A stretch of 46,303 nucleotides of DNA from an uncultured Gammaproteobacteria bacterium (GCA_964370875.1 CAYJLM010000001.1:1-46303), one strand, 5' to 3'; counted from the stretch's first letter, positions 2,778-45,212 are shown. The notes: a model not told the origin generated them from the letters alone. Program-made: numbers and translations.

Positions 2778-2798
2778 TCTTTCGATTGGAGCGCGACA

Positions 2799-4506: not shown

Positions 4507-4913
4507 TGGCCTCGACCACCTTCCAGCTTTCTTCGGTTGCGGCCACCGACCCGATTACTCTCGCCTGGAATGCGATTGATTACCCAATCGTCTCGCATCT
4601 TGGACTATATTTGAACGTCCGGTTTCGGCGGGCGGTTCTGTATTTTCCAGTGTTGACCTCGGCCCAATACGCACAATGGATGGCTTACTGCGACAACAAT
4701 ACCTCGCCATTGCCCTACATGCCGCGCCGGACGGACGGAACTTACATTCTGTCGCCGGAAATATTTAGTGTGACGACCAGTGAACTGGCGTTTGATATTC
4801 GCTATCGTCTGCATTTTTTGGGCAGCCAGCACGGGGAGCGAGACCGCATCCATGACACCCGGATACTGGCCTACATGGTGCGCGTGGATACTCTGCAAGG
4901 CGGCGGCGGATGA
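4506..4913 (+). CDS. Tail component (distal-tail-protein position)
   Basis: 135-aa ORF with TAATG overlap to the tape measure and ATGA overlap to the next gene. Confidence 0.6.
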   Translation: MASTTFQLSSVAATDPITLAWNAIDYPIVSHLGLYLNVRFRRAVLYFPVLTSAQYAQWMAYCDNNTSPLPYMPRRTDGTYILSPEIFSVTTSELAFDIRYRLHFLGSQHGERDRIHDTRILAYMVRVDTLQGGGG

Positions 4914-8010: not shown

Positions 8011-8522
8011 TGGCAGGTAATGGGTTTACATTTGCGGTCAATAGCACGGCCCAGGATGCGCGGGCGGGCGGAACGATTGAGGGCGGTGTCATCACAACCG
8101 ATGTCGGCAATGTCGGCAGCGGTGAGGATAACCTGATGACCTTCACCCTGGCGGCCAGTGCATTGGCTGTCAACGGGGACAGGCTGGAAATTGAAGCGGC
8201 CTTTACGACTGCCGCCAATGGCAACAACAAGACCGTTAAGTTTTATTTTGGGTCGCAGGCTTACACGACCGGGGCATTGGCCCTGAATGCGGCTAAACTG
8301 GTAGTGCGGGCGACGGTGATTCGGACGGGGGCGGCTACTCAAAAAGTGATTGTGACAGTAGCTGGGAGCGACATACTGGTAACAACGGCTTTACTGGCGA
8401 CCTTTGCCGACCTGACCGAAACCCTCTCGAATGCCACCACCATCAAGTTTACCGGCGAGGCCACCAGCGACAATGACATTGTACAAGAGGCGATGGTGAT
8501 TAAGTTCTACCCGTTTGTGTAG
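8010..8522 (+). CDS. Tail-fibre-associated protein of unknown function
   Basis: 170-aa ORF with TAATG overlap. Beta-rich Ala/Thr/Gly composition. It is the last gene of the late block. Confidence 0.6.
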   Translation: MAGNGFTFAVNSTAQDARAGGTIEGGVITTDVGNVGSGEDNLMTFTLAASALAVNGDRLEIEAAFTTAANGNNKTVKFYFGSQAYTTGALALNAAKLVVRATVIRTGAATQKVIVTVAGSDILVTTALLATFADLTETLSNATTIKFTGEATSDNDIVQEAMVIKFYPFV

Positions 8523-9076
8523 CGGGGCGTTCGCTTCTTCCCCAGCCTGGCCCGCTCTGCGTCCAACATCTCGGCTATCCGCTTTACGCAGTCTATGTCG
8601 TCATCCTGCTCGGCGCTATTCAGGGCTTCAAGGGAACGCTCGTACTCATCTGCCAGCCAGTCGGCCAGGTTGAACGGCGGCGGCGTGTAGGGGTTAGCCT
8701 TATCGGATAGGAATTTGGAGTAATCTTCGGCGGTAGTCGTGTTGTCAATCTCGGCCTGCTCTAATGCGTCAATGATAACTTCGGTAGGCAGCCTATCCGC
8801 AAATCGCAGGGAACGGACGTAAAAAGTATAGGGTAAATCGTAATGGCGGGGCAGGGCGGCTCGTAGCTCGGCAACTTGCGCGTATTCCCGTACCGTCCTC
8901 TCACTCCGTTTGACGTAGCGATTCATCGCCATTTGACTAGCCCAGTTCGGCAAGTCTTCCTGTTTGGCCTGCCACGCCAATTCCGCCAACTCGAATCGCT
9001 TCTCTTCAATCGTCCCGCCAATCGATTCTATCTTGCGGTTATAGGTTTCCGGGGTGAGTTTGTCGCTAGTTTTCAT
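8507..9076 (-). CDS. Hypothetical protein (last gene of early block)
   Basis: Start chosen at MKTSDKL (ATG 9076) behind the SD GGAGAGAGA. The 3' end overlaps the 3' end of the convergent gene 8010..8522 by 16 nt. Confidence 0.55.
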   Translation of the reverse strand: MKTSDKLTPETYNRKIESIGGTIEEKRFELAELAWQAKQEDLPNWASQMAMNRYVKRSERTVREYAQVAELRAALPRHYDLPYTFYVRSLRFADRLPTEVIIDALEQAEIDNTTTAEDYSKFLSDKANPYTPPPFNLADWLADEYERSLEALNSAEQDDDIDCVKRIAEMLDAERARLGKKRTPRYTNG

Positions 9077-9185
9077 CGTCTCTCTCCACACTCCCCACCA
9101 CCGTCCCGATTGCCGACACACCGAGCCATGCGCCGAGGCAACAGCCGCAGCCGAACGAGGTGATGAGGGTGTATAGGTAGGTCAT
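9066..9185 (-). CDS. Possible 39-aa small membrane protein
   Basis: MTYLYTLITSFGCGCCLGAWLGVSAIGTVVGSVERDDEN. Its ATG overlaps the stop of the dam-like gene (ATGA). It is below the ORF-track size cutoff and fills an otherwise empty gap. Confidence 0.3.
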   Translation of the reverse strand: MTYLYTLITSFGCGCCLGAWLGVSAIGTVVGSVERDDEN

Positions 9186-9862
9186 GGTTGGAATAGGCCG
9201 GGCTGATGTAAGTCGTTCATCCAAACGGCTTCGGTGGTTTTATTCTTTGAACCATGCAATGTTCCAATTGGATAAAATGGCAACCAGTCGGCTTTAGTGT
9301 TTTCGCAGACGATTACTTGCCCGTCGCGGGATTGACACCATTCAGACAAATTCGGGAAGTCCAAGAGCTTATTACTTTGTTTATAATGTTCCCCGCCAAA
9401 CTGATAAGGTGGGTCGATGAACCAAGTAGCCTCTTTATTCTCTATATTGCGATAATCTCCTAATTCAATCCGCCAATTCTTTATCTTGAAGATTTGAGAC
9501 GCTATGCGCTTTAAATCTTTTTCAACGTCAACACCGTCAAATGATGCAACCTTTTGGCGTGGGCTTTCAACGCCGCCAGTTACCAGAAACCCCATAAACA
9601 TTCTTTCAACATCAGACAACGATTCTGGAATCCGCTCACCTGTTTTTAGTTTAGGAAGCCCTAAAATATCTTTCGGCGCGGCCTGCTGTAGATAGTGCCA
9701 TACCTTGATGATCACATCGTACTTGTCTACCAGCAGAACATCATGCTCCCAATATTTAAGCGCGTATCTGGCCGTCCCCGCGAACGGCTCAATAATCTTC
9801 TTGTGCTTCGGCGCGGGATACAAGTCAATCACCTTGCTTTTACTGCCATAGTAAGACCACAT
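9182..9862 (-). CDS. dam: DNA adenine methyltransferase (D12/Dam class)
   Basis: Motifs YYGSK, EPFAGTARYA (FxGxG) and FIDPPY. The gene looks visibly AT-richer than its neighbours (by eye). Confidence 0.85.
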   Translation of the reverse strand: MWSYYGSKSKVIDLYPAPKHKKIIEPFAGTARYALKYWEHDVLLVDKYDVIIKVWHYLQQAAPKDILGLPKLKTGERIPESLSDVERMFMGFLVTGGVESPRQKVASFDGVDVEKDLKRIASQIFKIKNWRIELGDYRNIENKEATWFIDPPYQFGGEHYKQSNKLLDFPNLSEWCQSRDGQVIVCENTKADWLPFYPIGTLHGSKNKTTEAVWMNDLHQPGLFQP

Positions 9863-9864
9863 GA

Positions 9865-10362
9865 TTACGGCTTCCTCCGAATAAAGAAATCAGTCCTATC
9901 CTCCAGCGGGTAGCAGACCGCCCCGCCGTTGAAACATATTTCATAGTCATACTCATTCGATACGATTGGGGTGGGTGTCTGACTAGCCATCACCGTCGCG
10001 CTCGGCACTAGCGTGCGGGTTGGCGACGGGGACGGGGTAGGCGAGGGCGTACCGGACGGGCAGACGATAATCCAGTAACTTCCTATGGCCCACATACCCG
10101 GCCCGATGTTCCACCACGTCCGGCCCTGGCTATCTTTTGCCGTTGCCAGCACCGTGAATGTCTCAGTATCATTGGCGGCATCGCGGGCATAGGCGGCATT
10201 GCCGTCTGGAAGCGTGCGAATATTTACGCGGTAACCGGGTGGGAGAGAGATTGAGCCACCGATTGGGCATTGCGATTGCGCGTGTACGGGAGTGCCGATA
10301 ACCGTCACAGCCAATACGGACGCGATAAGCAGCGGGGCAAGCAGGAGGGCGCGGGGTGTCAT
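9865..10362 (-). CDS. Secreted protein with SH3-like domain and Pro/Thr/Ser linker
   Basis: Signal peptide MTPRALLLAPLLIASVLAVTVIGTPVHAQ. SH3b-like YRVNIRTLPDGNA..GRTWWNIGPGMW. Linker GTPSPTPSPSPTRT. Confidence 0.65.
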   Translation of the reverse strand: MTPRALLLAPLLIASVLAVTVIGTPVHAQSQCPIGGSISLPPGYRVNIRTLPDGNAAYARDAANDTETFTVLATAKDSQGRTWWNIGPGMWAIGSYWIIVCPSGTPSPTPSPSPTRTLVPSATVMASQTPTPIVSNEYDYEICFNGGAVCYPLEDRTDFFIRRKP

Positions 10363-11146: not shown

Positions 11147-11283
11147 TTCACCACCTCCGCCGTCAGCACAATCGCCCGCATCTCCCGCCCATCTGCCACC
11201 ACCCCCGGTACGCACAGCAGCCCGGACGCGGAGAGGAGGAGCAGGCCGCAGAGAACGAGGGCGAGGATGAGACGGGGTGTCAT
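11143..11283 (-). CDS. Possible 46-aa signal-peptide/membrane miniprotein
   Basis: MTPRLILALVLCGLLLLSASGLLCVPGVVADGREMRAIVLTAEVVK, with ATGA overlap upstream and GTGA overlap downstream. Confidence 0.35.
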   Translation of the reverse strand: MTPRLILALVLCGLLLLSASGLLCVPGVVADGREMRAIVLTAEVVK

Positions 11284-11951
11284 CGCTTCCCTGCCCGGAA
11301 ATCGGAAAACTTCAACTTCCACATCAACCGATGTCCATTGCGGGTAAGTAAGAGCGGATTAGTTCGGGCCACAACCCCTTCAGCCTGCAAGCCCGCACCG
11401 CCATCTTCTTTAGCGCAAATGCTTTCGCTGATAAGCAATGCCAATTCATCCTCGCGGGTTGGAATATGCGCGATCTCGCCCAATACCGGGACGGTGGTAA
11501 CACCCAACTTAATTGCCACGTCCAGAATATCGCTTTGATTTAGCCACCACTCGCCCACCTTGACATCGAACAGGCGAAACGATACGCCCTTGCGGTAGTT
11601 GCCGCCGCCCTTCTGAATCTTCTCGCCATAGCCCTCACCGAACAAAACGATACTAGCAAGCGAGTTATCCATTTCGGGAAACGCCAATCTCATCTTATCA
11701 GCCGTGAACGTCTCTTGTAAATGCGACATCAAGAATGTTGGCATTTGAGCGTTATCGGTGCGCCCGCCAAACTGTATCTTCCAGTCTACAATTGGCGTAC
11801 AGCCCACCCGGATATTCGTGCCGTCAATCTTTTCGGTCACAAGCCAACGCTTGATATTCTCAAATTCCGGCAGACGAAACTCTTCGGGGATAACCGTAAA
11901 CGTTTCCTTGTTGCGATTGTAAACAGTTTCAATCTTTGGATATTCAATCAT
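11280..11951 (-). CDS. ATP-dependent RNA-ligase-family nucleotidyltransferase
   Basis: Motif I TEKIDGTNIRV (KxDG), FGEGYGEKIQ, AEGVVAR and WKLKFSDF, giving a ligase motif I/III/IV/V layout. Size and order resemble the Pfam RNA_ligase (PF09414) family. Confidence 0.7.
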   Translation of the reverse strand: MIEYPKIETVYNRNKETFTVIPEEFRLPEFENIKRWLVTEKIDGTNIRVGCTPIVDWKIQFGGRTDNAQMPTFLMSHLQETFTADKMRLAFPEMDNSLASIVLFGEGYGEKIQKGGGNYRKGVSFRLFDVKVGEWWLNQSDILDVAIKLGVTTVPVLGEIAHIPTREDELALLISESICAKEDGGAGLQAEGVVARTNPLLLTRNGHRLMWKLKFSDFRAGKR

Positions 11952-27134: not shown

Positions 27135-27401
27135 ATGACTAATCCACCTGAATCATCTTGGTACAATTCTGACTATCTCAATCAGCTTAACGTGTTACGC
27201 CACATGCAGCAGCGACAACTTTCCGCCCAGGGTGACCCCTTCCGCCCTGGCCCGTTCGAGTTGTCGGATGAGAGCGATGAATCGCCGCAACATAACCCAC
27301 TGCCGCAGGTGGACAGGCGTGTGAGCCGGGTAGTGGTTGCGGTCATCGTGGCAATGGCGGTGGTAGGGGCCACGATGCTGGTGTGGGCGGTGTGGGGATG
27401 A
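27135..27401 (+). CDS. C-terminally anchored small membrane protein
   Basis: ATG 27135 (MTNPPESSWYN) lies behind GGAGGCGAAAGGGA; the track's start at 27066 abuts the putative -10. C-terminal TM segment VVVAVIVAMAVVGATMLVWAVWG. Confidence 0.45.
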   Translation: MTNPPESSWYNSDYLNQLNVLRHMQQRQLSAQGDPFRPGPFELSDESDESPQHNPLPQVDRRVSRVVVAVIVAMAVVGATMLVWAVWG

Positions 27402-28618
27402 CCCAATTCCGCACCTCGAAGCGCAACAACAACAAGCACACCCAGCGCGGGATGGGACTACTCGCCAACTCCATGCGCGAGGATGGCTATGTTGCGCCGG
27501 TGACGGTTGCGGCAGACGGCGAGTCGCTGGACGGTTCGGCCAGGCTCGAGACGATTGAGGAAGTGTTTCCGAATGCCGAGCCGATAATTATTCACAGTGA
27601 CGGCACACGCCCAATCGTACACGTTAGAGATGACATCCAAAACGCAGAGCAGCCCATCGCCCGCCGGATTGCGACTCGCGCCAATCGAATCGCCCAACTC
27701 AATCTTGATTATGATGTTGACGTGCTGCTGCAAGACGCGGCGGCGGGTATTGATTTGGACGCGCTAGGGCTGCGAGATGATGAAGTAAAAGAGCTAATGG
27801 CGAAGGCGGGGATGGAGATGGGGGGGCAGGCCGACGCCGAGCCGCAGATAGACAAAGCCGCCGAACTCAATAAGAAGTGGAAAGTGAAGCGCGGCGACTT
27901 GTGGAGCATCGGTGAGCATCGGTTATTGTGCGGGGATAGCACGGTACGCGAGGATGTGGAGCGGGTGATGGGCGGGGAGAGGGCGAGCATGGTTTTTACA
28001 GACCCGCCCTATAACGTTAATTATGGCGCGAACGCGAACCCGCGATGGCGGGTTCGCGTAATAGAGAACGACTCAAAGACCCCAGAAGATTGGGCGAAGT
28101 TCTGCGAGTTGTGGATGCAGTCTATTTTCAGTGTGGCTGATGGTGGGGTTTATATCTGCATGAGCGACAAAGAGCTTCCGTCCGTCACGAGCGCATTTCT
28201 AAAAGCGGGCGGGCATTGGAGTTCCTATATTGTCTGGGTGAAGGATAGGTTCGTTTTAGGTCTAAAGGACTACCATTCTCGAAACGAGAAAATACTATAC
28301 GGCTGGGTTGAAGGCAAGTCCCATGTGTTCACGGGCGGGCGCGATAAGGACGATGTGTGGGAGATAGCGCGGCCATCGACCAGCGAAGAACACCCAACCA
28401 TGAAGCCCGTCGAATTGGTGGCGCGGGCGGTAGCCAACTCATCCGATTTAGGCGACAACGTATATGAGCCTTTTGCTGGCTCTGGTACAACCCTCGTCGC
28501 CTGCCAGAATCTAAGCCGCAAGTGCCGCGCTATCGAAATCAGCGAAAATTATTGTGCTGTTATTTTGGAGAGGATGGCAACCGCCTTTCCCGCCCTGCCA
28601 ATTGAGCTAATACCATGA
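27398..28618 (+). CDS. ParB-like N-terminal domain fused to N6/N4 DNA methyltransferase (beta class)
   Basis: The N-terminus has ..VTVAADGESLDGSARLE (ParB-like DGxxR). The methylase has FTDPPYNVNYG and HPTMKPVELVARAV..VYEPFAGSGTT (PF01555 pattern). ATGA overlap upstream. Confidence 0.85.
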   Translation: MTQFRTSKRNNNKHTQRGMGLLANSMREDGYVAPVTVAADGESLDGSARLETIEEVFPNAEPIIIHSDGTRPIVHVRDDIQNAEQPIARRIATRANRIAQLNLDYDVDVLLQDAAAGIDLDALGLRDDEVKELMAKAGMEMGGQADAEPQIDKAAELNKKWKVKRGDLWSIGEHRLLCGDSTVREDVERVMGGERASMVFTDPPYNVNYGANANPRWRVRVIENDSKTPEDWAKFCELWMQSIFSVADGGVYICMSDKELPSVTSAFLKAGGHWSSYIVWVKDRFVLGLKDYHSRNEKILYGWVEGKSHVFTGGRDKDDVWEIARPSTSEEHPTMKPVELVARAVANSSDLGDNVYEPFAGSGTTLVACQNLSRKCRAIEISENYCAVILERMATAFPALPIELIP

Positions 28619-35619: not shown

Positions 35620-36018
35620 ATGGCTGCTGGTAATCATGGAACCGTCATGCCGCGCTACCTCCCCGGTCTGCTGGCCGGTCTGACGTTGGCGGCGAAACAA
35701 AACTACGTTGTCAAGCACGCCTCAACCGCTAACGCGGTGGTTGCGGTGACCGCTACGACCGATATTGCCATCGGGGTTGTGCTGAACGACCCGGCTTCGG
35801 GCGAAGCGGCTCTGGTGGCTGATGATGGCATTGTCCCTTGCATCGCGGGCGTCAACGACCTGGCGCGCGGGGAAAACGTCGGATATGACTCGACCGGGCG
35901 GGTGGTTGACCATACGACCGCCAACCGCTTGAGCATTGGCCGGGCACTTGAGGCCTCAACAACCGTCGGAGATATTGTAAGTATCCAACTCTATGGTGGT
36001 GGAGCGCACCTCTACTAG
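35620..36018 (+). CDS. DUF2190-type head decoration/cement protein
   Basis: 132 aa, directly upstream of the capsid gene. Contains AIGVVLNDPASGEAALVADDGIVPC..GENVGYDSTGRV. Confidence 0.65.
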   Translation: MAAGNHGTVMPRYLPGLLAGLTLAAKQNYVVKHASTANAVVAVTATTDIAIGVVLNDPASGEAALVADDGIVPCIAGVNDLARGENVGYDSTGRVVDHTTANRLSIGRALEASTTVGDIVSIQLYGGGAHLY

Positions 36019-36042: not shown

Positions 36043-36993
36043 ATGCCTACTATCCCCACCATCAACGATGTACAGGGCGTCGAAACCGTCCTGACAAATA
36101 TGCTGATTGGCTACATGCAGACTGATACCCGCTTTGTGGCTACCCGTCAATTCCCGTTCGTGCCGGTGGCCTACGACTCCGGGACATTCTTCATCGTCAC
36201 CAAGAAATACTTTTTTATGGATGACCTGCGGGCACGTGCCCCCGGCGGTGATTTTGAGTATGCGGGCTTTGGCCTCTCGACTGACACCTATTCCACCTTC
36301 CAGTGGGGCAAGGGGCTGCTCCTGCCCGACGAAGTCCGGGGTAACTCCCAAGTCCCTATGGATTTGGAGCAGATTGGCTTGCGGCAGTTGTCGCAGAAGT
36401 CCCTCATCCGCAAGGAAGTGGCCTTCGCTACCGACTTCATGGCCTCCGGCGTCTGGGGCACAACCGACAGCAACAGCACGACCGACTGGGATGATTTCGC
36501 CGCTGGTGACCCGGTCAATGACGTGATGACCGCCTCGCGCACCATCTCCAACAACACCGGGTACGATGCCAACAGTATGACGCTGGGCTATATCGTGCAT
36601 CAGGCCTTGACTCTGCATCCCGATATTCTTGACCGCTTGAAGTACACGACCGCCGCGACTCAAATGGCGGTGGAAGGCGCACTGGCGGCCATCTTCGGCA
36701 AGTCAAACTACTGGGTTGGCAAGGCGACCTACACCAACACCAACGAGGCTTCGGCCTTCTCGGCTTCGGCTATCGTGGACGATGATTGCCTGGTTTCGTA
36801 TGTTGACCCAAGCGCCGGCATCTTTGGCGCGACGGCTGGCAAGACCTTCACCTGGGCGGTGGGCGGCGGTGAGGGTGCAATCTTCCGTGACCCAGCCCGG
36901 CAGAACCACAGCGATACCTTCCAGCACAAGGAACAGTGGGATCAGAAGGTGGTTGCTTCCGACCTCGGCTACATCTTCCTGGACGTGGTTTAA
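36043..36993 (+). CDS. Major capsid protein (HK97-fold, gpE/Mu T-like family)
   Basis: 316 aa with a strong SD (AGGAG). Its position after the protease and decoration genes is typical, as is the N-terminal PTINDVQGVETVLTNMLIGYMQ. Confidence 0.8.
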   Translation: MPTIPTINDVQGVETVLTNMLIGYMQTDTRFVATRQFPFVPVAYDSGTFFIVTKKYFFMDDLRARAPGGDFEYAGFGLSTDTYSTFQWGKGLLLPDEVRGNSQVPMDLEQIGLRQLSQKSLIRKEVAFATDFMASGVWGTTDSNSTTDWDDFAAGDPVNDVMTASRTISNNTGYDANSMTLGYIVHQALTLHPDILDRLKYTTAATQMAVEGALAAIFGKSNYWVGKATYTNTNEASAFSASAIVDDDCLVSYVDPSAGIFGATAGKTFTWAVGGGEGAIFRDPARQNHSDTFQHKEQWDQKVVASDLGYIFLDVV

Positions 36994-37005: not shown

Positions 37006-37446
37006 ATGGCTAACCGACCTCAAAACTCACCGAAGGGATTGTTTGTCAAGAAAAAGATTGGCGTAGCCGATTCGAGTGGCAATGTATCCTATCTCACTTC
37101 CAACTCAACCGGGTTGGCATTGGATGGGGCATTGCAGTTGTCCGGGTCGGTCGCTCACAAGTTGACCGGCAATTCGACCGGGCTGGTATTGTCGGGCGGC
37201 GTGAAGATTAGCAATCAGGCCAATGGCGTTTTGACCGCCAACTCGACCGGCGTCAATGCCGTCGGCTCGGTGGCAGTTTCCGGGCAGGCCACATTTGGCA
37301 AGCTATCAGCCAATTCAACCGCATTGATTTTGCCGAACTCGGTGCGGGTCGGAACAAAGACGACCTACCTGAGTTCGGATTCTACGGGAATGAAACTGGG
37401 GTCTCGATACGTGAGCACCAACACAACTGGGAACTCAGTCACCTAA
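37006..37446 (+). CDS. Repeat protein with L-[TS]-x-N-S-T-[GA] motifs (candidate modification substrate / head fibre)
   Basis: 146 aa with SD AGGTGAG. Gly/Ser/Thr/Asn/Val/Leu-rich. It has six N-x-S/T sequons, five of them in conserved repeat contexts. Confidence 0.7.
   Translation: MANRPQNSPKGLFVKKKIGVADSSGNVSYLTSNSTGLALDGALQLSGSVAHKLTGNSTGLVLSGGVKISNQANGVLTANSTGVNAVGSVAVSGQATFGKLSANSTALILPNSVRVGTKTTYLSSDSTGMKLGSRYVSTNTTGNSVT
37090..37443 (+). repeat. Imperfect tandem coding repeats, period ~66-72 bp (22-24 aa), 5 copies plus a short sixth
   Basis: The repeat cores are YLTSNSTG (aa 29), KLTGNSTG (52), VLTANSTG (75), KLSANSTA (99), YLSSDSTG (121) and YVSTNTTG (135). Confidence 0.7.
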
Positions 37447-37551
37447 CTTTGTCGAAGCAGGCGGCGGGAGGTTGGCGACTCTTGCCGGTGCGCGCTCACC
37501 CAATGGAGTCGCGCAGCCCCCGCCGTCTTGCTCCGAGCGCGCGGAGCATTT

Positions 37552-38529
37552 ATGAACAACCAAACAGCACCGAAGGAATACACTGGCTCGTGTTATATTG
37601 GGTGGGTCGGGCCAGAGGGGGAAAACGGGGAATGCCGGGACAGTATCGAACATCTGATACTTGACCGGGGCGATAGTTTTCCAGTCCCCGTCCGGGCCAC
37701 AAAGGGCTACGAAGCCCGCAACATTCATTTTGAGCGGTGGCTAACCAAGACGGAGCATCCCTTTATGCTCCTGCTTGACCATGACCATGTTTTCCCGCCG
37801 GATACATTACGGCGCTTGCGTTCGCACAAGCTCCCCTATGTGTCCGGTCACTATTTAAGGCGACGGTACGAACCGATTGCGCCGGTCTGGTTTGAGCCGT
37901 TCAGCGGGTCATGGCCTTTCAAGCCATTCATGAAAGACCCGGAGCGCGGCAAGCTACATGAGTTGGGCGCGTCCGGTTGGGGTTGTATCCTCATTCACCG
38001 CGACGTGGCTCTGGCAGTACAGGCGCTATTGCATCACGAGCCATTGGTGCTTGAAGATGACATGGACATCTGGGCCTACGACCTCGACAAACTGATTGCC
38101 GCCCTGCGAATCCTGAACGGGTTACAGAATGGCGAAATCAAAGAGGATGGGGCGCGGGCCTTCCGGGTAGCCGTCAAGACTCTGAATGAGAATATCCGTC
38201 CACTGCGGGGCGTGAAAGACCCGGCGGGCAGTGATATACGATTCCCGTTCTACGCCAAACAGGCCGGGTATACGCTCTGGGGTGACCCGGACGTTAGAGT
38301 ACCCCACATGCTCAATTACCCACTCTCGCCCGATGACTACAGCGGGCAGACCGAAGAGTCTAAACTGACCCAGGCCGAAGTTGGTTTGCAGGGTTATTTC
38401 CCGGAACGGCGGCGCATGAAGGAACTCGCGGCAGTCCAGCGGGGCGAGGCCTGGGAATGTCCGCTCTGTGGCAATGTCAACCCGGTAACAGAACAAGTCT
38501 GCCTGGGGTGTGATGAGGCAAGAAAATGA
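37552..38529 (+). CDS. GT-A-fold glycosyltransferase with C-terminal RanBP2-type zinc finger
   Basis: ATG 37552 lies behind GGAG. DxD-like LLLDHDHVF, GASGWGCILIHRDV, and GSDIRFPFYAKQAGY. C-terminal WECPLCGNVNPVTEQVCLGC. Confidence 0.65.
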   Translation: MNNQTAPKEYTGSCYIGWVGPEGENGECRDSIEHLILDRGDSFPVPVRATKGYEARNIHFERWLTKTEHPFMLLLDHDHVFPPDTLRRLRSHKLPYVSGHYLRRRYEPIAPVWFEPFSGSWPFKPFMKDPERGKLHELGASGWGCILIHRDVALAVQALLHHEPLVLEDDMDIWAYDLDKLIAALRILNGLQNGEIKEDGARAFRVAVKTLNENIRPLRGVKDPAGSDIRFPFYAKQAGYTLWGDPDVRVPHMLNYPLSPDDYSGQTEESKLTQAEVGLQGYFPERRRMKELAAVQRGEAWECPLCGNVNPVTEQVCLGCDEARK

Positions 38530-39389
38530 AAACGCTCTTTATCGCCTCTGGCCCATACTCGTGGGGGTCGGCTCGAATGCGCTGTTACTGGCCCGCCAAG
38601 TACATGACTGACGCGCACGTAATCCTCAACGGCGAACCGCTCCCGACAAACTTCGATAACTATATCTTCCAGAAGCAGGCCGCCAATGAGGACGTCATGC
38701 GGAAATTAGGGGAGATGGGCAAGCGAGTCTACTGGGATTTGTGCGATCCGATGTGGTGGTGGAGTCCCGAATTTGTAGAGGCGATTGCCCCGCTTTGTCA
38801 CAGGCTTGTTTTTAGCAGTCGGGCGCTTGAGGATGATTACCTGAATTGGTGTTCGAGTGAGACTCTAATCACCATCCCCGACCGGCTGGACTTTGACCAC
38901 TTCAAGCAACGCGCGGTATTGGCTGACCGTTCCCCGATTCGCCTGATTTGGTACGGGGTGGCAGTCAACCGGATTGCACTCATGGCGGCGCTGGCTAACC
39001 TCGAACGGCTGGCGGCTAATGGCGTGAAATTCGAGCTAACCATCTTTGATGACCGCCCCGAAGTACAATGGCTGGAAACCGATTCGTTTCCCGTCTATCA
39101 TGTGCGCTGGAGCGTTGAGAAGGAAATCGACATACTGACGGCTCACGACATTGCGCTCCTGCCGCCCTATCCCGGCCCCTGGGGGAGGGTGAAAAGCCCC
39201 AACAAGAAGATAACCGCCTGGGCTTGTGGCCTGCCCGTGACGACCGGCGAGGACTATAATGAGTTGTACGATATATGCCACATGCTAGAGATGCGGGTGG
39301 CGCTGGCAAACGCCGGATGGCGTGAGGCTGAAACAAACTGGCGCGCGGAACAGAGCGCGAAGGATTGGGAGGTATTGCTAGCCGAATGA
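38526..39389 (+). CDS. Possible GT-B-fold glycosyltransferase
   Basis: 287 aa with ATGA overlap. Two-Rossmann-like layout; KSPNKKITAWACGLPV resembles a GT1-type C-terminal motif. Weak by-eye call. Confidence 0.45.
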   Translation: MKTLFIASGPYSWGSARMRCYWPAKYMTDAHVILNGEPLPTNFDNYIFQKQAANEDVMRKLGEMGKRVYWDLCDPMWWWSPEFVEAIAPLCHRLVFSSRALEDDYLNWCSSETLITIPDRLDFDHFKQRAVLADRSPIRLIWYGVAVNRIALMAALANLERLAANGVKFELTIFDDRPEVQWLETDSFPVYHVRWSVEKEIDILTAHDIALLPPYPGPWGRVKSPNKKITAWACGLPVTTGEDYNELYDICHMLEMRVALANAGWREAETNWRAEQSAKDWEVLLAE

Positions 39390-40696
39390 ACATCGTCATC
39401 GCTAACACCGTAGGCCGTCTCGATTCGGGTGAGTTGGTTGTCACCTTCCCCAGCCGATGGTCGTCTGTCGTTGCCCATAAGGTCAACGGAAACTTTGATT
39501 TTTATCCTTATGAGTTAGGCTATGTTTCGGCCATGCTAAAACGGGAACTACCGAAAGGCTGGGCAACCGTAACGATGGTAGACGGGTGTCACGAGTGCCT
39601 ATCGGCAGATGAATATATCCCGCGGCTGGCCCTGCTTCGGCCCGATGTATTGATTACCGAATGTTGCGCCCTCACCTATCCGGCTATGACGCGAGTCTTG
39701 CATGGGTTACAGGCGCTAGGCTATGCCAAAGCGGGCGCGTGGTTGGGCGGGCCATACGGGATGTACAACCCCGTTCAGGCTACGAATGACGGCTGGAGCG
39801 TAATGACAGGCGAATACGAATACCGGATAGCCGATGCGTTTCAATTGCCACACCCGCCGGGCCAGTACATTGATTTAGACTGGTTGCCATTTCCCGAAGA
39901 TGACGACATCAGGCGGATTGAGTATGAAGAGCCGTTTGGCAATCCCTATAGCGGGATGGTACAGGTTTACGCCTCGCGGGGCTGCCCGCTGGCCTGTAAG
40001 TTCTGTGTTGTGCCGATGTACTATGGTGGGCACGGTAACAGCCACAAGAGCCACCGGGTGAGGGACGTCGAATCGGTCTGTGCTGAATTGGGGTATTTGG
40101 CCGCTAAATACACAGACCGATTCAACGGGGCATACTTCCACGAAGAGACGCACAACGCGAATCCCGAATGGCTGGCGGCGCTGTGTGAAGAGATAATCGC
40201 GCAAGGGTTGAATCGCTATCACTATGACGCGATGTGCGGCTATTGGACGTTCACCGAGGACTTGATTGGTCTTATGGCGCGGGCCGGATACTGCAATATT
40301 AGAGTCGGCATCGAATCGCTCTCGCAGGGGGTTGGTAAGCGGATCGGGAAGGTTGTGTTTGAGGATAAGCTCATCAAGGTCTTGGAGTGGTGCAAGAAAT
40401 ACGGTATACGCACTTACGGCACATTGCAGGTCGGGGCGCAAGGGGCAACCGAGGCGGGCGATTTGGATACACTCGAATCAGTCTTGGACTTGCGGCGGCG
40501 CGGGCTACTTGATATTTGGCAGCACAGTATCAGCACCCCCCAGCCGGGTACGCCGTTCTTTGATGAGGTCAAGCAGGCGGGCTATCTCATCACCGAGGAT
40601 ATTCGACATTTCAACGGCGTACAGGCGGTTGTCTCATGGCCGGACTACCCCGCCGAACGAATCAACGCCGTGCGGAGGCGGTATCTAAACGCATGA
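39386..40696 (+). CDS. Radical SAM enzyme with N-terminal B12-binding-type domain (class B)
   Basis: CPLACKFC (CxxxCxxC, 39983-40006) follows a ~190-aa N-terminal Rossmann-like domain. IRVGIESLSQ. ATGA overlap. Confidence 0.8.
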   Translation: MNIVIANTVGRLDSGELVVTFPSRWSSVVAHKVNGNFDFYPYELGYVSAMLKRELPKGWATVTMVDGCHECLSADEYIPRLALLRPDVLITECCALTYPAMTRVLHGLQALGYAKAGAWLGGPYGMYNPVQATNDGWSVMTGEYEYRIADAFQLPHPPGQYIDLDWLPFPEDDDIRRIEYEEPFGNPYSGMVQVYASRGCPLACKFCVVPMYYGGHGNSHKSHRVRDVESVCAELGYLAAKYTDRFNGAYFHEETHNANPEWLAALCEEIIAQGLNRYHYDAMCGYWTFTEDLIGLMARAGYCNIRVGIESLSQGVGKRIGKVVFEDKLIKVLEWCKKYGIRTYGTLQVGAQGATEAGDLDTLESVLDLRRRGLLDIWQHSISTPQPGTPFFDEVKQAGYLITEDIRHFNGVQAVVSWPDYPAERINAVRRRYLNA

Positions 40697-41643
40697 AGCG
40701 CGTCTGCCTCATCCATCGGCCCGGTGCGAATAGCGGCGGCGATTGGGTAGCCCTGCAAGCCTACGCTGAAGCCCTCCAGATTCAAGGCTGGCAATACGCC
40801 CTCCGCCCCGCTGACAGGATAGGCGACCTGTCCGGTTTTGATTACGCCCATCTGTGGGCGGCTTGCTCCCCTGATTGGGGGTTGAATGCTGCGATTGAGG
40901 TCAAGCGGCAGGGCAAGCCTCTCATCATTACACCGTTTTGGTGGTCACGGGACGAACGGCAGGCGTTCTATGGCCGGGCCGGGCAGGACTTGACAGCCGG
41001 TTATACGCCGGGCGTGGCTGAAACCCTGAAGCGGGCGGATGTGTTATTCACCGTTACCGAGAGCGAGGCGCGGCAATGTTGGGAGCTTGCGCCGAATGTA
41101 AAAGCCTGGATTGTTCCGATGGGGACTGAAGCGAGATTAGGACTGGTGGCCCAGCCTGTTGAGAATTTTGTATTGTCGATTGGCCGGATTGAGCCACACA
41201 AGAATCAATTGACCCTGGCAAAGGTCTGCAAGATGCTGGGCTATAAGCTGATACTATTCGGGAAAGTCGTCCACCGTCAATATGCCGATATGATCCTGTC
41301 GCTCGGTCATCCGATTTATCAGGCGGCAGACCTATCGGAAACGATGAAATGGAAACTCCTGTCACATTGCCGCGTCCATGCCCTACCATCATTCTTTGAG
41401 AATCCCGGCCTTGTGCATGGCGAGGCGTTGGCGCTCGGCATTCCGGCGGTGATGGGTGGTCATGGGTGCGAAACAGAATTCTATAAAGAAAACGGTATCT
41501 ACTGTGACCCGACTCAAATCACCGATGTCGCACGGGCGCTTAAGGTGGGTTGGGAGCGCCAGCGGCAAGCCCCCGCCAAACTGCCGACGTGGATAGATGC
41601 GGCCAATCGGGCGATTGAATGGATGGAGGCGCACGAATGCTAA
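40693..41643 (+). CDS. Glycosyltransferase family 1/4 (GT-B)
   Basis: SIGRIEPHKNQ and PSFFENPGLVHGEALALGIPAV (E-x7-E motif). ATGA overlap. Confidence 0.85.
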   Translation: MKRVCLIHRPGANSGGDWVALQAYAEALQIQGWQYALRPADRIGDLSGFDYAHLWAACSPDWGLNAAIEVKRQGKPLIITPFWWSRDERQAFYGRAGQDLTAGYTPGVAETLKRADVLFTVTESEARQCWELAPNVKAWIVPMGTEARLGLVAQPVENFVLSIGRIEPHKNQLTLAKVCKMLGYKLILFGKVVHRQYADMILSLGHPIYQAADLSETMKWKLLSHCRVHALPSFFENPGLVHGEALALGIPAVMGGHGCETEFYKENGIYCDPTQITDVARALKVGWERQRQAPAKLPTWIDAANRAIEWMEAHEC

Positions 41644-42251
41644 CTGAACGAAGCCGCGAGATCCCGTTTCTGCTCAATCACGCCATTGGCGCGCGCGATA
41701 TGCTGGACATCGGTTCGGCAGGCTCGAAGTATCTGGCGTCCCTGTCGCAAGTCGTTCACAATCTCACCTGTATCGATACCCGCGATTATGAGGTGCCGTA
41801 TGGGGTGACGGGCTTGATTGGCGATGCGACTCATTTACCCGAAGATTGGACAGGGCGCTTTGATTGTGTCTCCTGTATCAGTGTGCTTGACCATGTTGGA
41901 CTGGACGCTTACGGCAATAACGCCGACCCGGAAGCATTGGGGCGGGTAGTGTCTGAAATGGCGCGGGTAACAAAGCGGGGCGGCAAGCTGATTGTGACCG
42001 CCCCGGTAGGCAGGCCGCAACTCACCATCCATCCCAACGGCGGGCAGCGGGTGTTTGACCCCGACGAACTTTATGATTTATTTGTTGATAAGGACTGGCG
42101 ACTCAAGTATTACGAAGGATGGGCCTTAGTCAACTATGATGACGGAATAGAAGAATATAAACAATGTAATATAGTTGCGTGGCTATCCAATTCGGAATAT
42201 GGCGGAAATCGCGCCAATGCTTGTCTGTGTGCGGAGTTGATTCGGCTATGA
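41637..42251 (+). CDS. Class I SAM-dependent methyltransferase
   Basis: Motif I MLDIGSAGS, then FDCVSCISVLDHVG and GGKLIVTAP. ATG 41637 overlaps the upstream gene by 7 nt. Confidence 0.75.
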   Translation: MLTERSREIPFLLNHAIGARDMLDIGSAGSKYLASLSQVVHNLTCIDTRDYEVPYGVTGLIGDATHLPEDWTGRFDCVSCISVLDHVGLDAYGNNADPEALGRVVSEMARVTKRGGKLIVTAPVGRPQLTIHPNGGQRVFDPDELYDLFVDKDWRLKYYEGWALVNYDDGIEEYKQCNIVAWLSNSEYGGNRANACLCAELIRL

Positions 42252-42844
42252 AAATCGTGGCGCTAATTATCGGAATCGACGGCTGGAACGAATACACCGC
42301 GCCATTGGTTGCGGGCATTCAAGACCATGAACCGGATTGCCAGATTGTCGTCATTGACAACCACAGCCAGCGGCCTTACCCGGCTATGCCATACGTGCAT
42401 TACACTGACCGACTATGCTATGCGAAGGCAATCAACGCGGCGGCATCATTCGCGCCTGATGCGGACTGGTATATCATCCTCTCAAATGACGTGGCCTGTA
42501 CGGGTGAGTTCTCCGAGATGGTTAGCCGCCTTGACCCGGAGTGCATCTATGGCGGGGAAATGTACACCTTCTATGACGCTATTCCGTTTGTCATGGGGTG
42601 GTGTGTTATCACCTCGCGGGCCATGTTTGAGCGGGTGGGCGGCTGGGATGAAAACTATGTTGTCAGCAGTTGGGAGGACGTGGATTACTCCGAGGCGGTT
42701 CGCAAGGCGGGCGGGCAGTTGGATGTAATCGGCGGCCTGCCGTTCAAGCACCTAGACCAACGCCAGCGGTTTGGTCTGCCAGAGTTTGCGGGGACGCACG
42801 AACGGAATAAGGATTACTTTCTAAAGAAGTGGAAGTATCAATGA
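42248..42844 (+). CDS. Glycosyltransferase family 2 (GT-A)
   Basis: KIVALIIG.., QIVVIDNHS, ILSNDV, GWCVITSRAMFERVGGWDE, and SWEDVDYS. ATGA overlap. Confidence 0.8.
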   Translation: MKIVALIIGIDGWNEYTAPLVAGIQDHEPDCQIVVIDNHSQRPYPAMPYVHYTDRLCYAKAINAAASFAPDADWYIILSNDVACTGEFSEMVSRLDPECIYGGEMYTFYDAIPFVMGWCVITSRAMFERVGGWDENYVVSSWEDVDYSEAVRKAGGQLDVIGGLPFKHLDQRQRFGLPEFAGTHERNKDYFLKKWKYQ

Positions 42845-43893
42845 ATTTTATTGACCCACGCTCGAAACTGCTCCATCACCCGCACCGCCTATCAATGCTG
42901 AAGGCCGGGCTAGTCCCGCCGCCAATCAATGTCGAGATTGATTTGACGAATCGATGTTCACTCGGCTGCGAGTCGTGTCACTTTGCCTACACTCACACGC
43001 GCGGGCCATTGGCGGGTAAACGCGGCAAACCCGACAACTGGCAATCGGGCGGCGATGTGATGGAGACGAAATTAGCTCGCAAGATACTGACCGACTTGGC
43101 TTCAGCGGGAGTGCTGTCGGTGACGTGGACGGGCGGCGGTGAACCGACTCTGCATCCTGATTTTGACCTGATTACCTCTGCCAATCCACTGGAGCAGGGT
43201 GTCTATACGCACGGCGGGCATATCAGCGAAGAGCGGGCGGCCATGATGAAGCAATGTTTTACGTGGGTGTACGTGTCGCTGGACTGCCCCGACCGCGAGA
43301 GTTACCGGGCTTACAAGGGCGTGGACGGTTTCGAGCGGGCTATCAATGGCGTGACGAATCTAGTGGGGGCTGATGGCAAAGCCACAATTGGATTAGGTTT
43401 TTTGCTAGGCCGCGAAAACTGGCGTAAAATACCGGAGATGATTGCACTCGGTAATCAATTGGGTGTAGACTATGTTCAATTCCGGCCAATGATTCAGTAC
43501 ACGCAGGCCGAACCGGATAAGCCAGCCGAGGATACGGGCTGGCTCTCGGATTGCATCGCGGCGCTGGAATGGTCGTTAGCGCCAAACGTGATTTGTGACA
43601 TTGACCGCTTCCGAATGTACCGGGACTGGCAGGGACACGGCTATGAGACCTGTTACTATAGCGGCCTCTCAACCGTGATTACCCCGAATGGGAGTGTGTG
43701 GACGTGTGTCAACAAGCGGGAACATGCGGGCGATTATATGGGTAGCTTACAGGACGAATCATTTAGCAACATCTGGGGGCGGCGCAAACTGGCCCACGTC
43801 AATGGTGATTGCCGGGTGCTATGCCGGGGACATCTTGCCAATCTGACGGCAGGCGAAGTGATGCGCGAGGTAGAGCATGTCAACTTTATCTAG
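42841..43893 (+). CDS. Radical SAM enzyme (second), with Cys-containing C-terminal region
   Basis: DLTNRCSLGCESCHF (CxxxCxxC, 42955-42978) and WTGGGEPTLH. C-terminal Cys residues (CVNK..GDCRVLCRGH). ATGA overlap. Confidence 0.85.
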   Translation: MNFIDPRSKLLHHPHRLSMLKAGLVPPPINVEIDLTNRCSLGCESCHFAYTHTRGPLAGKRGKPDNWQSGGDVMETKLARKILTDLASAGVLSVTWTGGGEPTLHPDFDLITSANPLEQGVYTHGGHISEERAAMMKQCFTWVYVSLDCPDRESYRAYKGVDGFERAINGVTNLVGADGKATIGLGFLLGRENWRKIPEMIALGNQLGVDYVQFRPMIQYTQAEPDKPAEDTGWLSDCIAALEWSLAPNVICDIDRFRMYRDWQGHGYETCYYSGLSTVITPNGSVWTCVNKREHAGDYMGSLQDESFSNIWGRRKLAHVNGDCRVLCRGHLANLTAGEVMREVEHVNFI

Positions 43894-44089
43894 GCTGGTT
43901 GGTTATGGCCTGCTCTGGCCCGTCCATCGCCTGCTATGTGAGATTGGGAGTTATGGCTGGAAGCACAGCCACAAGTGGATTAATCGTAAACTCGTTTTGC
44001 CCCTGGCGTGTTTTGGGGCATATCTAGTCAATGGCTGCGACTGGAACAAGGTCGAGGGCCATCAATCGAAAGGGAAACGGAATGTATAA
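43877..44089 (+). CDS. Possible small protein
   Basis: 70-aa ORF with SD GAGG. It bridges the gap between the radical SAM gene and the next gene, overlapping both. Coding status is uncertain. Confidence 0.3.
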   Translation: MSTLSRLVGYGLLWPVHRLLCEIGSYGWKHSHKWINRKLVLPLACFGAYLVNGCDWNKVEGHQSKGKRNV

Positions 44090-44372
44090 GTTTGTAGCAC
44101 TCAAGGAATTTTCTATCGGCTCAAAGGCCAGCGATGATTTGCAGACCGTCAAAGAGGGCGAGGAATTTACCCCGCCTGCCGGTTGGGTTTACGACACAGA
44201 ATACTCTGCCCTGCCCGGCGTCGGCCGCCCGTTTTTCTCGTTTGAGACCAAGCGCCGCGTTCGCAACGTCAAGACCGGCACGATGGAATGGGAGCGGGAC
44301 ACCAAGCGGGTGGGCGTGCCGGTAGAAGTCATTGAGGTTTCGAGCGAGAAGCCCGCGCCGGTCAATGCCTGA
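44082..44372 (+). CDS. Hypothetical virion-module protein
   Basis: ATG 44082 (MYKFVALKEF); 96 aa. Confidence 0.5.
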   Translation: MYKFVALKEFSIGSKASDDLQTVKEGEEFTPPAGWVYDTEYSALPGVGRPFFSFETKRRVRNVKTGTMEWERDTKRVGVPVEVIEVSSEKPAPVNA

Positions 44373-44679
44373 ATACCTGTACCGTGACACGAAAGGTCAC
44401 GAAAAGACCCTGTTTCACCGGATGCTGTACGGGACGGGCGTGGTCTGTGACTGCGGCCTGGAGATGCGCCGCGTGATTCAGCCCGTCCGAATCAACTGGA
44501 ACGGAAACCGGGCGGTAGCCGAGACTGGGGCGGCAGTCAAAGAACTAATTGAGACCCGCCCGGCGCGGTTAGATGAATACTGGAAGGAGAAGGAGGCCCA
44601 TGTCAAAAAAACGCAACCGGAACGGGCAAATGCAAGCAATGACCCGACCTATGGCACAGTCCATCACGAACGCAAATAG
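44365..44679 (+). CDS. Hypothetical protein (degenerate FmdB-like N-terminus)
   Basis: ATG 44365 (MPEYLYRDTKGHEK..VVCDCG). Confidence 0.45.
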   Translation: MPEYLYRDTKGHEKTLFHRMLYGTGVVCDCGLEMRRVIQPVRINWNGNRAVAETGAAVKELIETRPARLDEYWKEKEAHVKKTQPERANASNDPTYGTVHHERK

Positions 44680-44845
44680 CGGGCAGTTTGTGACCCGTTA
44701 CGAGGTCATCCGTGAGTTCAAATATGGTGATAGAATACTAAAAGTCGGTGAGCAGTTTCAGCCAATCGGCGGCAGGAACGACGCCCTGATTATGGCGGGC
44801 GTCGGAAAGTACGTCAAACGGGTAGAAATTCCGCTCACCCAATAA
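44600..44845 (+). CDS. Hypothetical protein
   Basis: ATG 44600 (MSKKRNRNG) lies behind the strong SD GGAGAAGGAGG. It overlaps the previous ORF by 80 nt. Confidence 0.45.
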   Translation: MSKKRNRNGQMQAMTRPMAQSITNANSGQFVTRYEVIREFKYGDRILKVGEQFQPIGGRNDALIMAGVGKYVKRVEIPLTQ

Positions 44846-44885
44846 CCAACCCACGAGCCGAAGCGCGGCGGCGGGGAGCTAATCA

Positions 44886-45212
44886 ATGGCACAACCGCGC
44901 GTATTACCCGGCCTGCTCTCGCCTGCCGGATTTCAATCCTCAAGCCTCGCAAATTCAACGGCGATAGCGGTCAACTCAACCGTTAGAGCGGCCAAGCCGT
45001 CCCTGCTGATTGTTAGTGTCGAGACGAATAACGTCCGTTATCGGCGCGACGGCACAGCCCCGACACTCTCAACTGGAATTTTGCTGACGGTTGCAAATTC
45101 GCCCTACGTCATCCCCTACGACCGCACCAGCAACCTGAAATTCCAGCGGCAGACCGGCACGGCCAAAGTCCAACTTGAAGGGCTAAAGGGATACGGGAAT
45201 AACCCGTTCTAA
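44886..45212 (+). CDS. Hypothetical virion-module protein
   Basis: 108 aa with SD GGGGAG. Contains LANSTAIAVNSTV and NNVRYRRDGTAPT. Confidence 0.55.
   Translation: MAQPRVLPGLLSPAGFQSSSLANSTAIAVNSTVRAAKPSLLIVSVETNNVRYRRDGTAPTLSTGILLTVANSPYVIPYDRTSNLKFQRQTGTAKVQLEGLKGYGNNPF

Follow-up and report, generated by a model that had tools for sequence, protein, structure and literature searches.

The window analysed here is a 46,303-nt stretch of DNA assigned to an uncultured Gammaproteobacteria bacterium (GCA_964370875.1, CAYJLM010000001.1:1-46303) and represents a complete phage genome of ~46.3 kb, assembled independently, with differing break points, in several samples of one ENA study. The head module of this genome is Mu-like, comprising Portal_Mu, a Mu-like protease/scaffold, a cement-like protein, and a major capsid protein (MCP); the replication and recombination genes are lambdoid in style, comprising RecT, a DnaC-like loader, and a replication initiator. 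Directly downstream of the MCP gene lies an island of eight genes (37006-43893, + strand), encoding, in order, an anchor-repeat protein, a GT-A-fold glycosyltransferase (GT), a probable GT-B glycosyltransferase, a B12-type radical S-adenosylmethionine (SAM) enzyme, a GT4-type glycosyltransferase, a class I SAM-dependent methyltransferase, a small GT-A-like glycosyltransferase, and a radical SAM/SPASM enzyme. All eight open reading frames (ORFs), each with an ATG start, and the motifs CPLACKFC, CSLGCESC, and E-x7-E were found where the original prediction, made from the window sequence alone, had placed them. Successive enzyme genes overlap by 4, 4, 4, 7, 4, and 4 nt, and the seven enzyme genes are translationally coupled within the late structural operon. 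The GC content of the island (0.53-0.58) is the same as that of the remaining genome, with no compositional anomaly, and a blastn search of the island against INPHARED phages returned zero matches at the DNA level. None of the eight island proteins contains a membrane span (maximum 19-residue Kyte-Doolittle window of 1.44), and the island yields no Pfam matches to Wzx/Wzy/Gtr-type genes or to a lipid-carrier transferase, in agreement with the soluble character originally proposed. A sugar-nucleotide pathway is not encoded within the island.

Comparative genomics reveals that the GT-A gene is an obligatory part of this head module and that the repeat protein, although common, can be dispensed with. 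In the least biased test of linkage, an MCP profile was searched against metagenome contigs, yielding 46 evaluable loci with MCP identities of 42-74%; a GT-A homolog is positioned 48-1067 nt downstream of the MCP gene in 46 of 46. The repeat protein is present between MCP and GT-A in ~33 of these 46 loci, is absent in 11 (with an MCP/GT-A gap of ≤105 nt), and is unclear in 2. The 68 unique loci obtained with GT-A or repeat-protein seeds likewise show MCP/GT-A linkage. Every locus found from the repeat protein (25 in IMG/VR and three from exact look-ups) has the order cement-like gene, MCP, repeat protein, and GT-A homolog, and all loci seeded with a GT-A profile (63 viral loci and 9 loci from metagenome-assembled genomes, MAGs) contain the same MCP family directly upstream. 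Where the repeat gene is present, it is always located between MCP and GT-A; no copy elsewhere was found in the 20 repeat-lacking loci searched (from the GT-A- and radical-SAM-seeded sets).

The gene following GT-A always encodes either a GT4-domain protein or a member of the probable GT-B family of the window. GT4 was detected in 10 of 10 scanned post-GT-A genes, 9 of which are fused to Methyltransf_24, and the simpler relatives contain only the GT-A enzyme and the GT4-methyltransferase. The window island is a rare expanded variant of this widespread, unnamed cassette. The search for the same gene order in phage and metagenome data that the original prediction had recommended was thus run, and simpler versions of the cassette recur in hundreds of related phages. 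The results modify that prediction. It had grouped a dedicated repeat protein with the enzymes; the universal partner of the GT-A enzyme is the capsid gene, with the repeat protein missing in about a quarter of loci. It had also known of no described phage locus with this combination, and our full-text literature searches likewise found no description of such a locus, but the locus is no one-off, as shown by 607 homolog clusters of the core GT-A family and by the 46 of 46 MCP-seeded loci.

The core GT-A-fold glycosyltransferase (325 aa; 37552-38529, + strand) has no significant match to a Pfam glycosyltransferase family, and its assignment follows from structure prediction. An AlphaFold2 (AF2) model computed from a 44-sequence alignment shows a single Rossmann-like GT-A fold, with a predicted local distance difference test (pLDDT) score of 94.6 and a predicted template modelling (pTM) score of 0.90. 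A Foldseek search with the model returned 97 PDB matches at E ≤ 1e-3, of which the 50 listed are GT-A glycosyltransferases, with TM-scores of only ~0.4-0.5. The top PDB match is A197 of STIV (1.9e-7), and other structural neighbours include the protein-glycosylating enzymes ColGalT1 and LH3 and the ppGalNAc-Ts; the search also reaches phage GT-A proteins (E 4e-15) and the PLOD-like GT domains of Megavirus. The DxD motif is present as D76-H-D78, and D76 and D78 are invariant in the 44 GT-A homologs. The original description of this protein as a GT-A enzyme with a zinc finger holds for the fold and the DxD motif; the C-terminal CxxC...CxxC zinc ribbon is real but scores below threshold, and is found in only 1 of 44 scanned homologs. 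We presume 37552-38529 to be the priming enzyme.

The MCP (316 aa; 36043-36993, + strand; phrog_1005, E 1.5e-56) is a candidate glycosylation target. The family conserves the elements T-D-N-N-S-T-T-D-W and R-T-I-S-x-x-T-G-x-x-x-N (residues 140-151 and 166-177), and within the S-x-x-T172-G173 element, T172 is retained in 57 of 61 homologs and G173 in 59 of 61. The Asn sequons of the MCP are kept in only 24 of 61 and 37 of 61 sequences; an N-x-T-G sequon resembling the motif of the repeat protein was considered and set aside as evidence, its Asn being the one kept in 37 of 61. The gene preceding that of the MCP encodes a cement/scaffold-like head protein (132 aa; 35620-36018, + strand; PF09956 Phage_cement_2, 24.8 bits against a cut-off of 24; phrog_673, 2.8e-15), and almost every related locus has a homolog of this gene ahead of its MCP gene.

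The anchor-repeat protein (146 aa; 37006-37446, + strand) begins with MANRPQNSPKG, followed by 5-6 units of ~23 aa containing [LI]-[ST]-x-N-S-T-G. The family comprises ~100 homolog clusters of 81-204 aa, with a consensus repeat of [YK]-[LI]-[ST]-[ASC]-N-S-T-G-[LV] and favoured motif spacings of 22-24, 14, and 4 residues. The only invariant columns of the family alignment are the N-S-T/T-G positions and the N-terminal segment MAHPQ[NS]SPRG, for which MARAQ, MAHAQ, and MPAQNSPRG occur as variants. Repeat number and type vary; for example, one homolog (L081) uses ITQ[DTS]AS[GT]. Across 102 homologs, N-[ST]-T occurs 494 times, as compared to 33 ± 5 in composition-preserving shuffles. The sequon repeats originally proposed are therefore a property of the family; in the window protein alone, 6 sequons are observed against 3.4 expected, which is not significant by shuffling (p ~0.08). 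Furthermore, the position before [ST]-T-[GA] holds Asn in 85% of cases and Asp in 7% (Asp background 1.7%), with S-T-G retained, which makes an N-linked reading of the motif somewhat less likely. The protein is rich in Ser, Thr, Gly, and Asn (46%) and nearly devoid of acidic residues, and the window copy contains no Cys and few aromatic residues. We infer a two-part architecture, with an N-terminus that would bind the capsid or be recognised by the enzymes and a variable, outward-facing Ser/Thr/Asn/Gly-rich array, and presume the protein to be a head-surface decoration or fibre and a glycan acceptor. Two related loci show variations in organisation: in L079 (4748-5476), the anchor N-terminus is fused to an unrelated 240-aa globular C-terminal domain, and in L097 (4523-5316), two tandem anchor-repeat paralogs (126 and 132 aa) lie between MCP and GT-A.

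The remaining glycosyltransferases and the methyltransferase are assigned with differing degrees of confidence. The protein encoded by 40693-41643 (316 aa, + strand) is a GT4-type GT-B enzyme with a retaining-type EX7E motif, which matches Glycos_transf_1 at 45 bits (cut-off 26.4) and in which both Glu residues of E236-x7-E244 are invariant among homologs. The adjacent 41637-42251 (204 aa, + strand) matches Methyltransf_11 at 35.9 bits, as expected for a class I SAM-dependent methyltransferase; the original assignments of both proteins are thereby upheld. The methyltransferase is absent from one relative (L015), and in another (L132) the GT4 enzyme and the methyltransferase of the island form one polypeptide. 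The protein encoded by 42248-42844 (198 aa, + strand), originally called a GT2 enzyme, is weakly supported as a small GT-A-like glycosyltransferase: it matches a PHROG glycosyltransferase family (phrog_2456, 5.4e-7) and contains a conserved E-D-V-D motif, of which V-D is invariant and E-D near-invariant, and its profile matches beta4GalT7 with an E-value of 0.009. Apart from this beta4GalT7 match, searches of PDB sequences with the profiles of the GT-A, GT-B-like, and small GT-A proteins returned nothing useful. For 38526-39389 (287 aa, + strand), a probable divergent GT-B glycosyltransferase, originally called GT-B-like, the window copy has no Pfam match, and some of its homologs show weak matches to GT4-type families (Glyco_trans_1_4 in 7 of 26, best 0.0054; Glyco_trans_4_4 in 2 of 26). 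An hhalign comparison with a GT4 alignment gives E 0.0018-0.0036 at a probability of 9-15%, with the C-terminal half in register. Its gene takes the place that the GT4-methyltransferase fusion holds in other loci.

Both radical SAM enzymes pass the Pfam Radical_SAM threshold, as had been predicted, and the second also passes that for SPASM. The first (436 aa; 39386-40696, + strand) is assigned as a B12-type (class-B-type) enzyme, with CPLACKFC at residue 200 and a Radical_SAM score of 48.2 bits (cut-off 29.5). The B12-binding domain PF02310, part of the original description, is not detected in the window protein itself, but is present above cut-off, aligned from residue 1, in full-length relatives with 37-39% identity (P0230, P0232, P0234, and P0235). 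The best NCBIfam match is HpnJ-like (83 bits against a cut-off of 578), and the nearest PDB sequences are QCMT 9CCB (3e-8) and AprD4 (5e-6); AprD4-like members of this sequence space bind no cobalamin (PMC12931638). The family is small, with only 57 representative clusters below 1e-30 in an exhaustive search, and consists of phage-encoded proteins or of proteins with additional GT, tetratricopeptide repeat (TPR), or methyltransferase domains; in particular, fusions to GT4 (P0235), to GT2 (P0236 and P0239), to TPR, and to TPR plus a methyltransferase were identified. The second enzyme (350 aa; 42841-43893, + strand) has CSLGCESC at residue 39, a Radical_SAM score of 53.4 bits, and a SPASM score of 24.1 bits (cut-off 21.5). 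It has 676 homolog clusters, with no fusion among the 120 matches listed, and its best NCBIfam and PDB matches are ScmF, MftC, PqqE, and SkfB.

The radical SAM pair behaves as a mobile sub-module, most often accompanied by the small GT-A and in some cases by a methyltransferase. B12-type homologs were identified in 19 IMG/VR loci, with a SPASM homolog alongside in 16 of the 19; two of the three loci without SPASM end just after the B12-type gene. Eight of the 19 loci, as well as L129 and L132, have a small GT-A homolog just upstream of the pair or close to it. Only a minority of the loci with a B12-type homolog belong to the phage family of the window (L015, L032, L039, L040, and L132), the remainder being head modules of unrelated phages. 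For example, L129 and L130, from the same study as the window, have an SPP1-type portal and a Phage_capsid_4 MCP, and show the order MCP, three small proteins, GT1, small GT-A, methyltransferase, B12-type radical SAM, SPASM radical SAM, and tail-completion genes. Within the family of the window, radical SAM genes are present in 2 of 14 loci with the repeat protein and in 1 of 3 without it; loci with radical SAM genes and without the repeat protein include L040, L115, L129, and L041-L056. A gene resembling a nucleotide-sugar epimerase/dehydratase (an N-terminal motif recognised by eye, not profile-confirmed) is located close to the pair in L056 and probably in L049; terminase-, portal-, and head-like ORFs (likewise not profile-tested) surround it. 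Outside phages, a 58%-identical SPASM homolog is located at the end of a bacterial polysaccharide locus (L131; ENA ERZ25039531 contig_120736, 2364-10101) that contains Wzz, Poly_export, Bac_transf, a hexapeptide acetyltransferase, and a GT4-conflict-type GT; no B12-type partner is present within 9 kb. The fusions, the head-module placement, the polysaccharide locus, and the failure of the pair to track the repeat protein together link both radical SAM enzymes to glycosyltransferase/glycan chemistry and not to one specific peptide substrate.

Two further observations concern loci that carry the pair. The first of the SPP1-type loci (L129, 2970-10068; ENA ERZ13693046 NODE_673) is from an unrelated siphovirus that carries the enzyme module at the equivalent post-capsid position and was recovered from the same samples as the window, which suggests module exchange within one community. 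In two pair-bearing unrelated phages (L042, 8504-9118 and 13615-14010; L044, 7378-8958 and 13735-14130), a paralog of the 131-aa protein encoded before the tail-length gene adjoins the glycosyltransferases; the paralog shares the N-terminus MANALSGT..GSVVY, has a C-terminal extension (204 or 526 aa), and may be an alternative glycosylation substrate.

Taken together, the results favour the interpretation that the late-expressed island serves to glycosylate head-surface proteins in the cytoplasm, the glycan being methylated and tailored by radical SAM enzymes, for which we estimate a probability of about 0.6 on evidence that is computational throughout. In the proposed mechanism, the anchor N-terminus would bind the repeat protein to the capsid or would be the part by which the enzymes recognise it. 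The GT-A enzyme would attach the first sugar in the cytoplasm late in infection, using a host nucleotide sugar as donor and the N-S-T-G motifs of the repeat protein and/or the MCP as acceptor. The GT-B-like, GT4, and small GT-A enzymes would lengthen the glycan, the class I methyltransferase would methylate it, and the B12-type and SPASM radical SAM enzymes would tailor the sugar, for example by C-methylation, oxidation, epimerisation, or ring chemistry. The assembled head would then display glycosylated fibres or decorations. The radical SAM, radical SAM/SPASM, and small GT-A genes would have been acquired by the window phage as a mobile module. Regarding the linkage, we lean, at about 60:40, toward O-linkage (Thr/Ser) over N-linkage (Asn), because bacterial cytoplasmic N-glycosylation uses GT-B enzymes of the GT41 family, because Asp replaces Asn with S-T-G kept, and because the structural neighbours of the GT-A enzyme include protein-O-glycosylating GT-A enzymes. 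A broader proposal, that many uncultured phages build a mucin-like head glyco-fibre by cytoplasmic glycosylation of a dedicated protein with an anchor and N-S-T-G repeats, and that the glycan of a subset, the window phage among them, is tailored by a mobile B12-type and SPASM pair, is put forward tentatively, and we would wager somewhat against it.

Several observations weigh against the proposed glycosylation of head-surface proteins. The repeat protein is absent in ~24% of loci and hence cannot be the only target, and synteny is association and does not identify a substrate. The repeat protein matches no Pfam, NCBIfam, or PHROG family, and no known decoration family; its AF2 model is poor (pLDDT 60, pTM 0.33) and contains only short beta hairpins, too poor to permit a fold search, so that neither a beta-helix nor a fibre fold is claimed. 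The second glycosyltransferase, 38526-39389, is only probably a GT-B enzyme by its sequence. SPASM-family enzymes and QCMT typically modify proteins or peptides, so the radical SAM enzymes could act on a polypeptide. Finally, a scan of genome contigs for a host was unproductive: the nine MAG contigs recovered fall into seven unrelated groups and are most likely binned phage contigs.

The first of these points is central to an alternative in which the MCP alone is glycosylated, the repeat protein being an unglycosylated decoration or fibre whose N-S-T-G motifs are structural Asx/ST turns. The constancy of the MCP/GT-A pairing, set against the loss of the repeat protein in about a quarter of loci, is what this alternative predicts, as is the use of Asp (7% against a background of 1.7%) as the main substitute for Asn, which would be expected at a structural Asx position, and the conserved S-x-x-T-G element provides a possible site in the MCP. 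We nevertheless consider it plausible but rather unlikely. The motif is the most conserved feature of a hypervariable protein encoded directly beside transferases; the Asn sequons of the MCP are themselves poorly kept; and Ser/Thr repeat proteins beside dedicated cytoplasmic GTs are a known pattern, exemplified by the serine-rich repeat adhesins. A different view of the same protein treats its N-terminus as a leader and its N-S-T-G repeats as a core, in a maturation resembling that of proteusins and other ribosomally synthesised and post-translationally modified peptides (RiPPs), with the radical SAM enzymes and the methyltransferase modifying residues and glycosylation added. A conserved N-terminus followed by hypervariable repeats does resemble leader/core logic, SPASM enzymes such as the best matches found here are mostly peptide maturases, and the nearest solved relative of the B12-type enzyme, QCMT, methylates a protein glutamine. 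The distribution of the genes makes this view distinctly unlikely: radical SAM genes are missing from 12 of 14 repeat-protein loci with enough sequence and occur in the loci listed above that have no repeat protein, the B12-type relatives are fused to glycosyltransferases, and a SPASM homolog resides in a bacterial polysaccharide locus. In addition, Pfam searches detected no NHLP/Nif11 or other known leader family in the repeat protein, and the window protein offers no Cys and few aromatic residues for known cross-link chemistries.

The two remaining alternatives place the acceptor outside the proteins of the virion. Phage GTs often modify host O-antigen (PMC12619734), and one SPASM homolog resides in a bacterial exopolysaccharide locus, so the enzymes could alter a glycan of the host envelope or produce a glycolipid or free glycan, serving seroconversion, superinfection exclusion, or lysis, with the head-module site being accidental. 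This is improbable given the lack of membrane spans, of Wzx/Wzy/Gtr-type genes, and of a lipid-carrier transferase, given translational coupling inside the late structural operon, and given that unbroken capsid linkage in 46 of 46 loci and the same placement in unrelated head modules would not be expected of a moron. Phage GT-A and GT-B enzymes are also known to glycosylate 5-hydroxymethylcytosine and related bases (bioRxiv 10.1101/2023.12.21.572611), and two DNA methyltransferases are encoded in the genome; a glycosylated, radically tailored base in virion DNA is, however, very improbable. The 47 window ORFs scanned include no TET/5mYOX, hydroxymethylase, thymidylate-synthase-like gene, DNA kinase, or DNA polymerase; the two DNA methyltransferases are N6/N4 and Dam-type (D12) and not C5 enzymes; and the island, which co-varies with the capsid gene, is placed in the head module and not among the replication genes. 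Thus, among the four hypotheses of the original prediction, a glycan on capsid or decoration proteins emerges as the best supported, through capsid linkage, the GT-A fold, and the radical SAM-glycan links; RiPP maturation and host-glycan remodelling are disfavoured; and DNA hypermodification stays in the last place that it had been given, with no acceptor-base pathway among the ORFs scanned.

The spacer between the repeat gene and the GT-A gene (37447-37551, + strand) contains a stable, long, GC-rich hairpin (free energy of -61 kcal/mol, z -4.9) that is kept in L015 (1037-1145), L018, and L039 (8082-8184). In close relatives, the stem is formed by GCGGCGGG...CCCGCCGC and is followed by the T-rich tract TTTGTCTCT; a conserved segment, GTGCGCGCTCA, can alternatively pair with TGAGCGCGCAG, directly before the GT-A start codon. 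No covariation was found for the hairpin. It could be a partial terminator or attenuator that lowers expression of the enzymes relative to that of the structural proteins. On the other side of the island, the head-tail genes named in the original prediction are a positional call from synteny only; a PHROG scan of genes 44031-45212, after the island, returned zero matches.

Elsewhere in the window, and unrelated to the island, are an RNA ligase gene (PF09414, 6e-17; 11280-11951, - strand), a Dam-like D12 methyltransferase gene (9182-9862, - strand), and an N6_N4 DNA methyltransferase gene (27383-28618, + strand). In a related phage, a 908-aa tail-region protein (L011, 16292-19018) has Hint/intein-type domains (PF01079 and PF07591). 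The only long, cellular-looking contig with an MCP/GT-A/GT-B-like module is an 85.7-kb Promineifilaceae MAG contig (L060; JBHIWP010000002.1, 8971-11610); the module may be part of an integrated prophage, and hence a lead to a host in the Chloroflexota.

To our knowledge, phage-encoded virion glycosylation has so far been demonstrated only in actinobacteriophages. The present locus points to a broader and genetically distinct system, in which a capsid family is always accompanied by its own GT-A enzyme, usually by a dedicated repeat protein as candidate substrate, and by interchangeable extension and tailoring modules. If the proposed glycosylation of head-surface proteins is correct, the cassette would provide a protein-glycosylation system that is compact, soluble, and probably portable and has a short acceptor motif, of interest for glyco-engineering; a new pair of radical SAM enzymes that probably act on carbohydrates; and a handle on how phages shape their surfaces for adhesion, stability, or evasion of grazers or immune recognition. 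Were the broader glyco-fibre proposal to hold, it would represent the first radical-SAM-dependent tailoring of a viral glycoprotein, by a pair that moves between unrelated head modules and one member of which also occurs in a bacterial exopolysaccharide locus. The complete 46-kb assembly means that gene synthesis can take the place of an isolate in testing.

The closest functional precedent is virion glycosylation in mycobacteriophages (Che8, Rita, and others), in which phage-encoded soluble GTs reportedly glycosylate capsid and tail-tube subunits in the cytoplasm and so give the virion a glycan coat (Freeman et al. 2023, as cited in PMC11256854 and PMC12619734). In those phages, the GT genes lie near the genome 3′ end (shown for Maravista) and outside the head module, glycans are placed on the C-termini of capsid and tail-tube subunits and not on a dedicated repeat protein, the hosts are Actinobacteria, and no radical SAM enzymes are reported. 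The fibrils of Mimivirus and Vp54 of chloroviruses resemble the present system in having viral clusters of GTs and methyltransferases that produce unusual methylated sugars independently of the host endoplasmic reticulum and Golgi, and the Asn sites of chloroviruses are NTXT-like (NTGT, NTET, and NTAT), reminiscent of N-S-T-G (PMC9614988). These viruses, however, infect eukaryotes, have unrelated capsid proteins, and use nucleotide-sugar pathways of their own, and no radical SAM tailoring has been described for them. In bacteria, repeat adhesins are glycosylated by several routes: serine-rich repeat proteins by GtfA/B and accessory GTs, AIDA-I and TibA by heptosyltransferases, and HMW1 by NGT. 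As is proposed for the island, a Ser/Thr (or N-X-S/T) repeat substrate is encoded beside several soluble GTs and is modified before export or assembly; unlike in the island, priming is performed by GT-B enzymes (GtfA, NGT/GT41) or heptosyltransferases and not by this GT-A family, the substrates are cell-surface and not virion proteins, and radical SAM enzymes are not known to be involved.

The radical SAM enzymes have their own relatives. The B12-type enzyme shares a CxxxCxxC core, and probably an N-terminal Rossmann/B12-like domain, with class B radical SAM enzymes, including GenK/Fom3-type C-methylases, HpnJ, AprD4 (which lacks cobalamin), and QCMT. HpnJ catalyses an amino-sugar ring contraction in hopanoids, AprD4 is an amino-sugar dehydratase, and QCMT is a protein glutamine C-methylase; 39386-40696 belongs to a separate subfamily, scoring far below the family cut-offs. 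The polytheonamide pathway (PoyA, PoyB/C, PoyD, and PoyE) likewise places B12-type and second radical SAM enzymes and a methyltransferase near a small Asn/Thr/Gly/Val-rich protein. It differs from the island in that the island has no NHLP/Nif11 leader and has four GT-like genes, in that the second radical SAM enzyme of the island is SPASM-type and not a PoyD-like epimerase, and in that, from locus to locus, the presence of the radical SAM genes is not tied to that of the small protein. The combination of a head-module GT-A enzyme, a dedicated anchor-repeat protein, and a radical SAM pair sets the island apart from the mycobacteriophage, giant-virus, and repeat-adhesin systems, none of which unites these elements.

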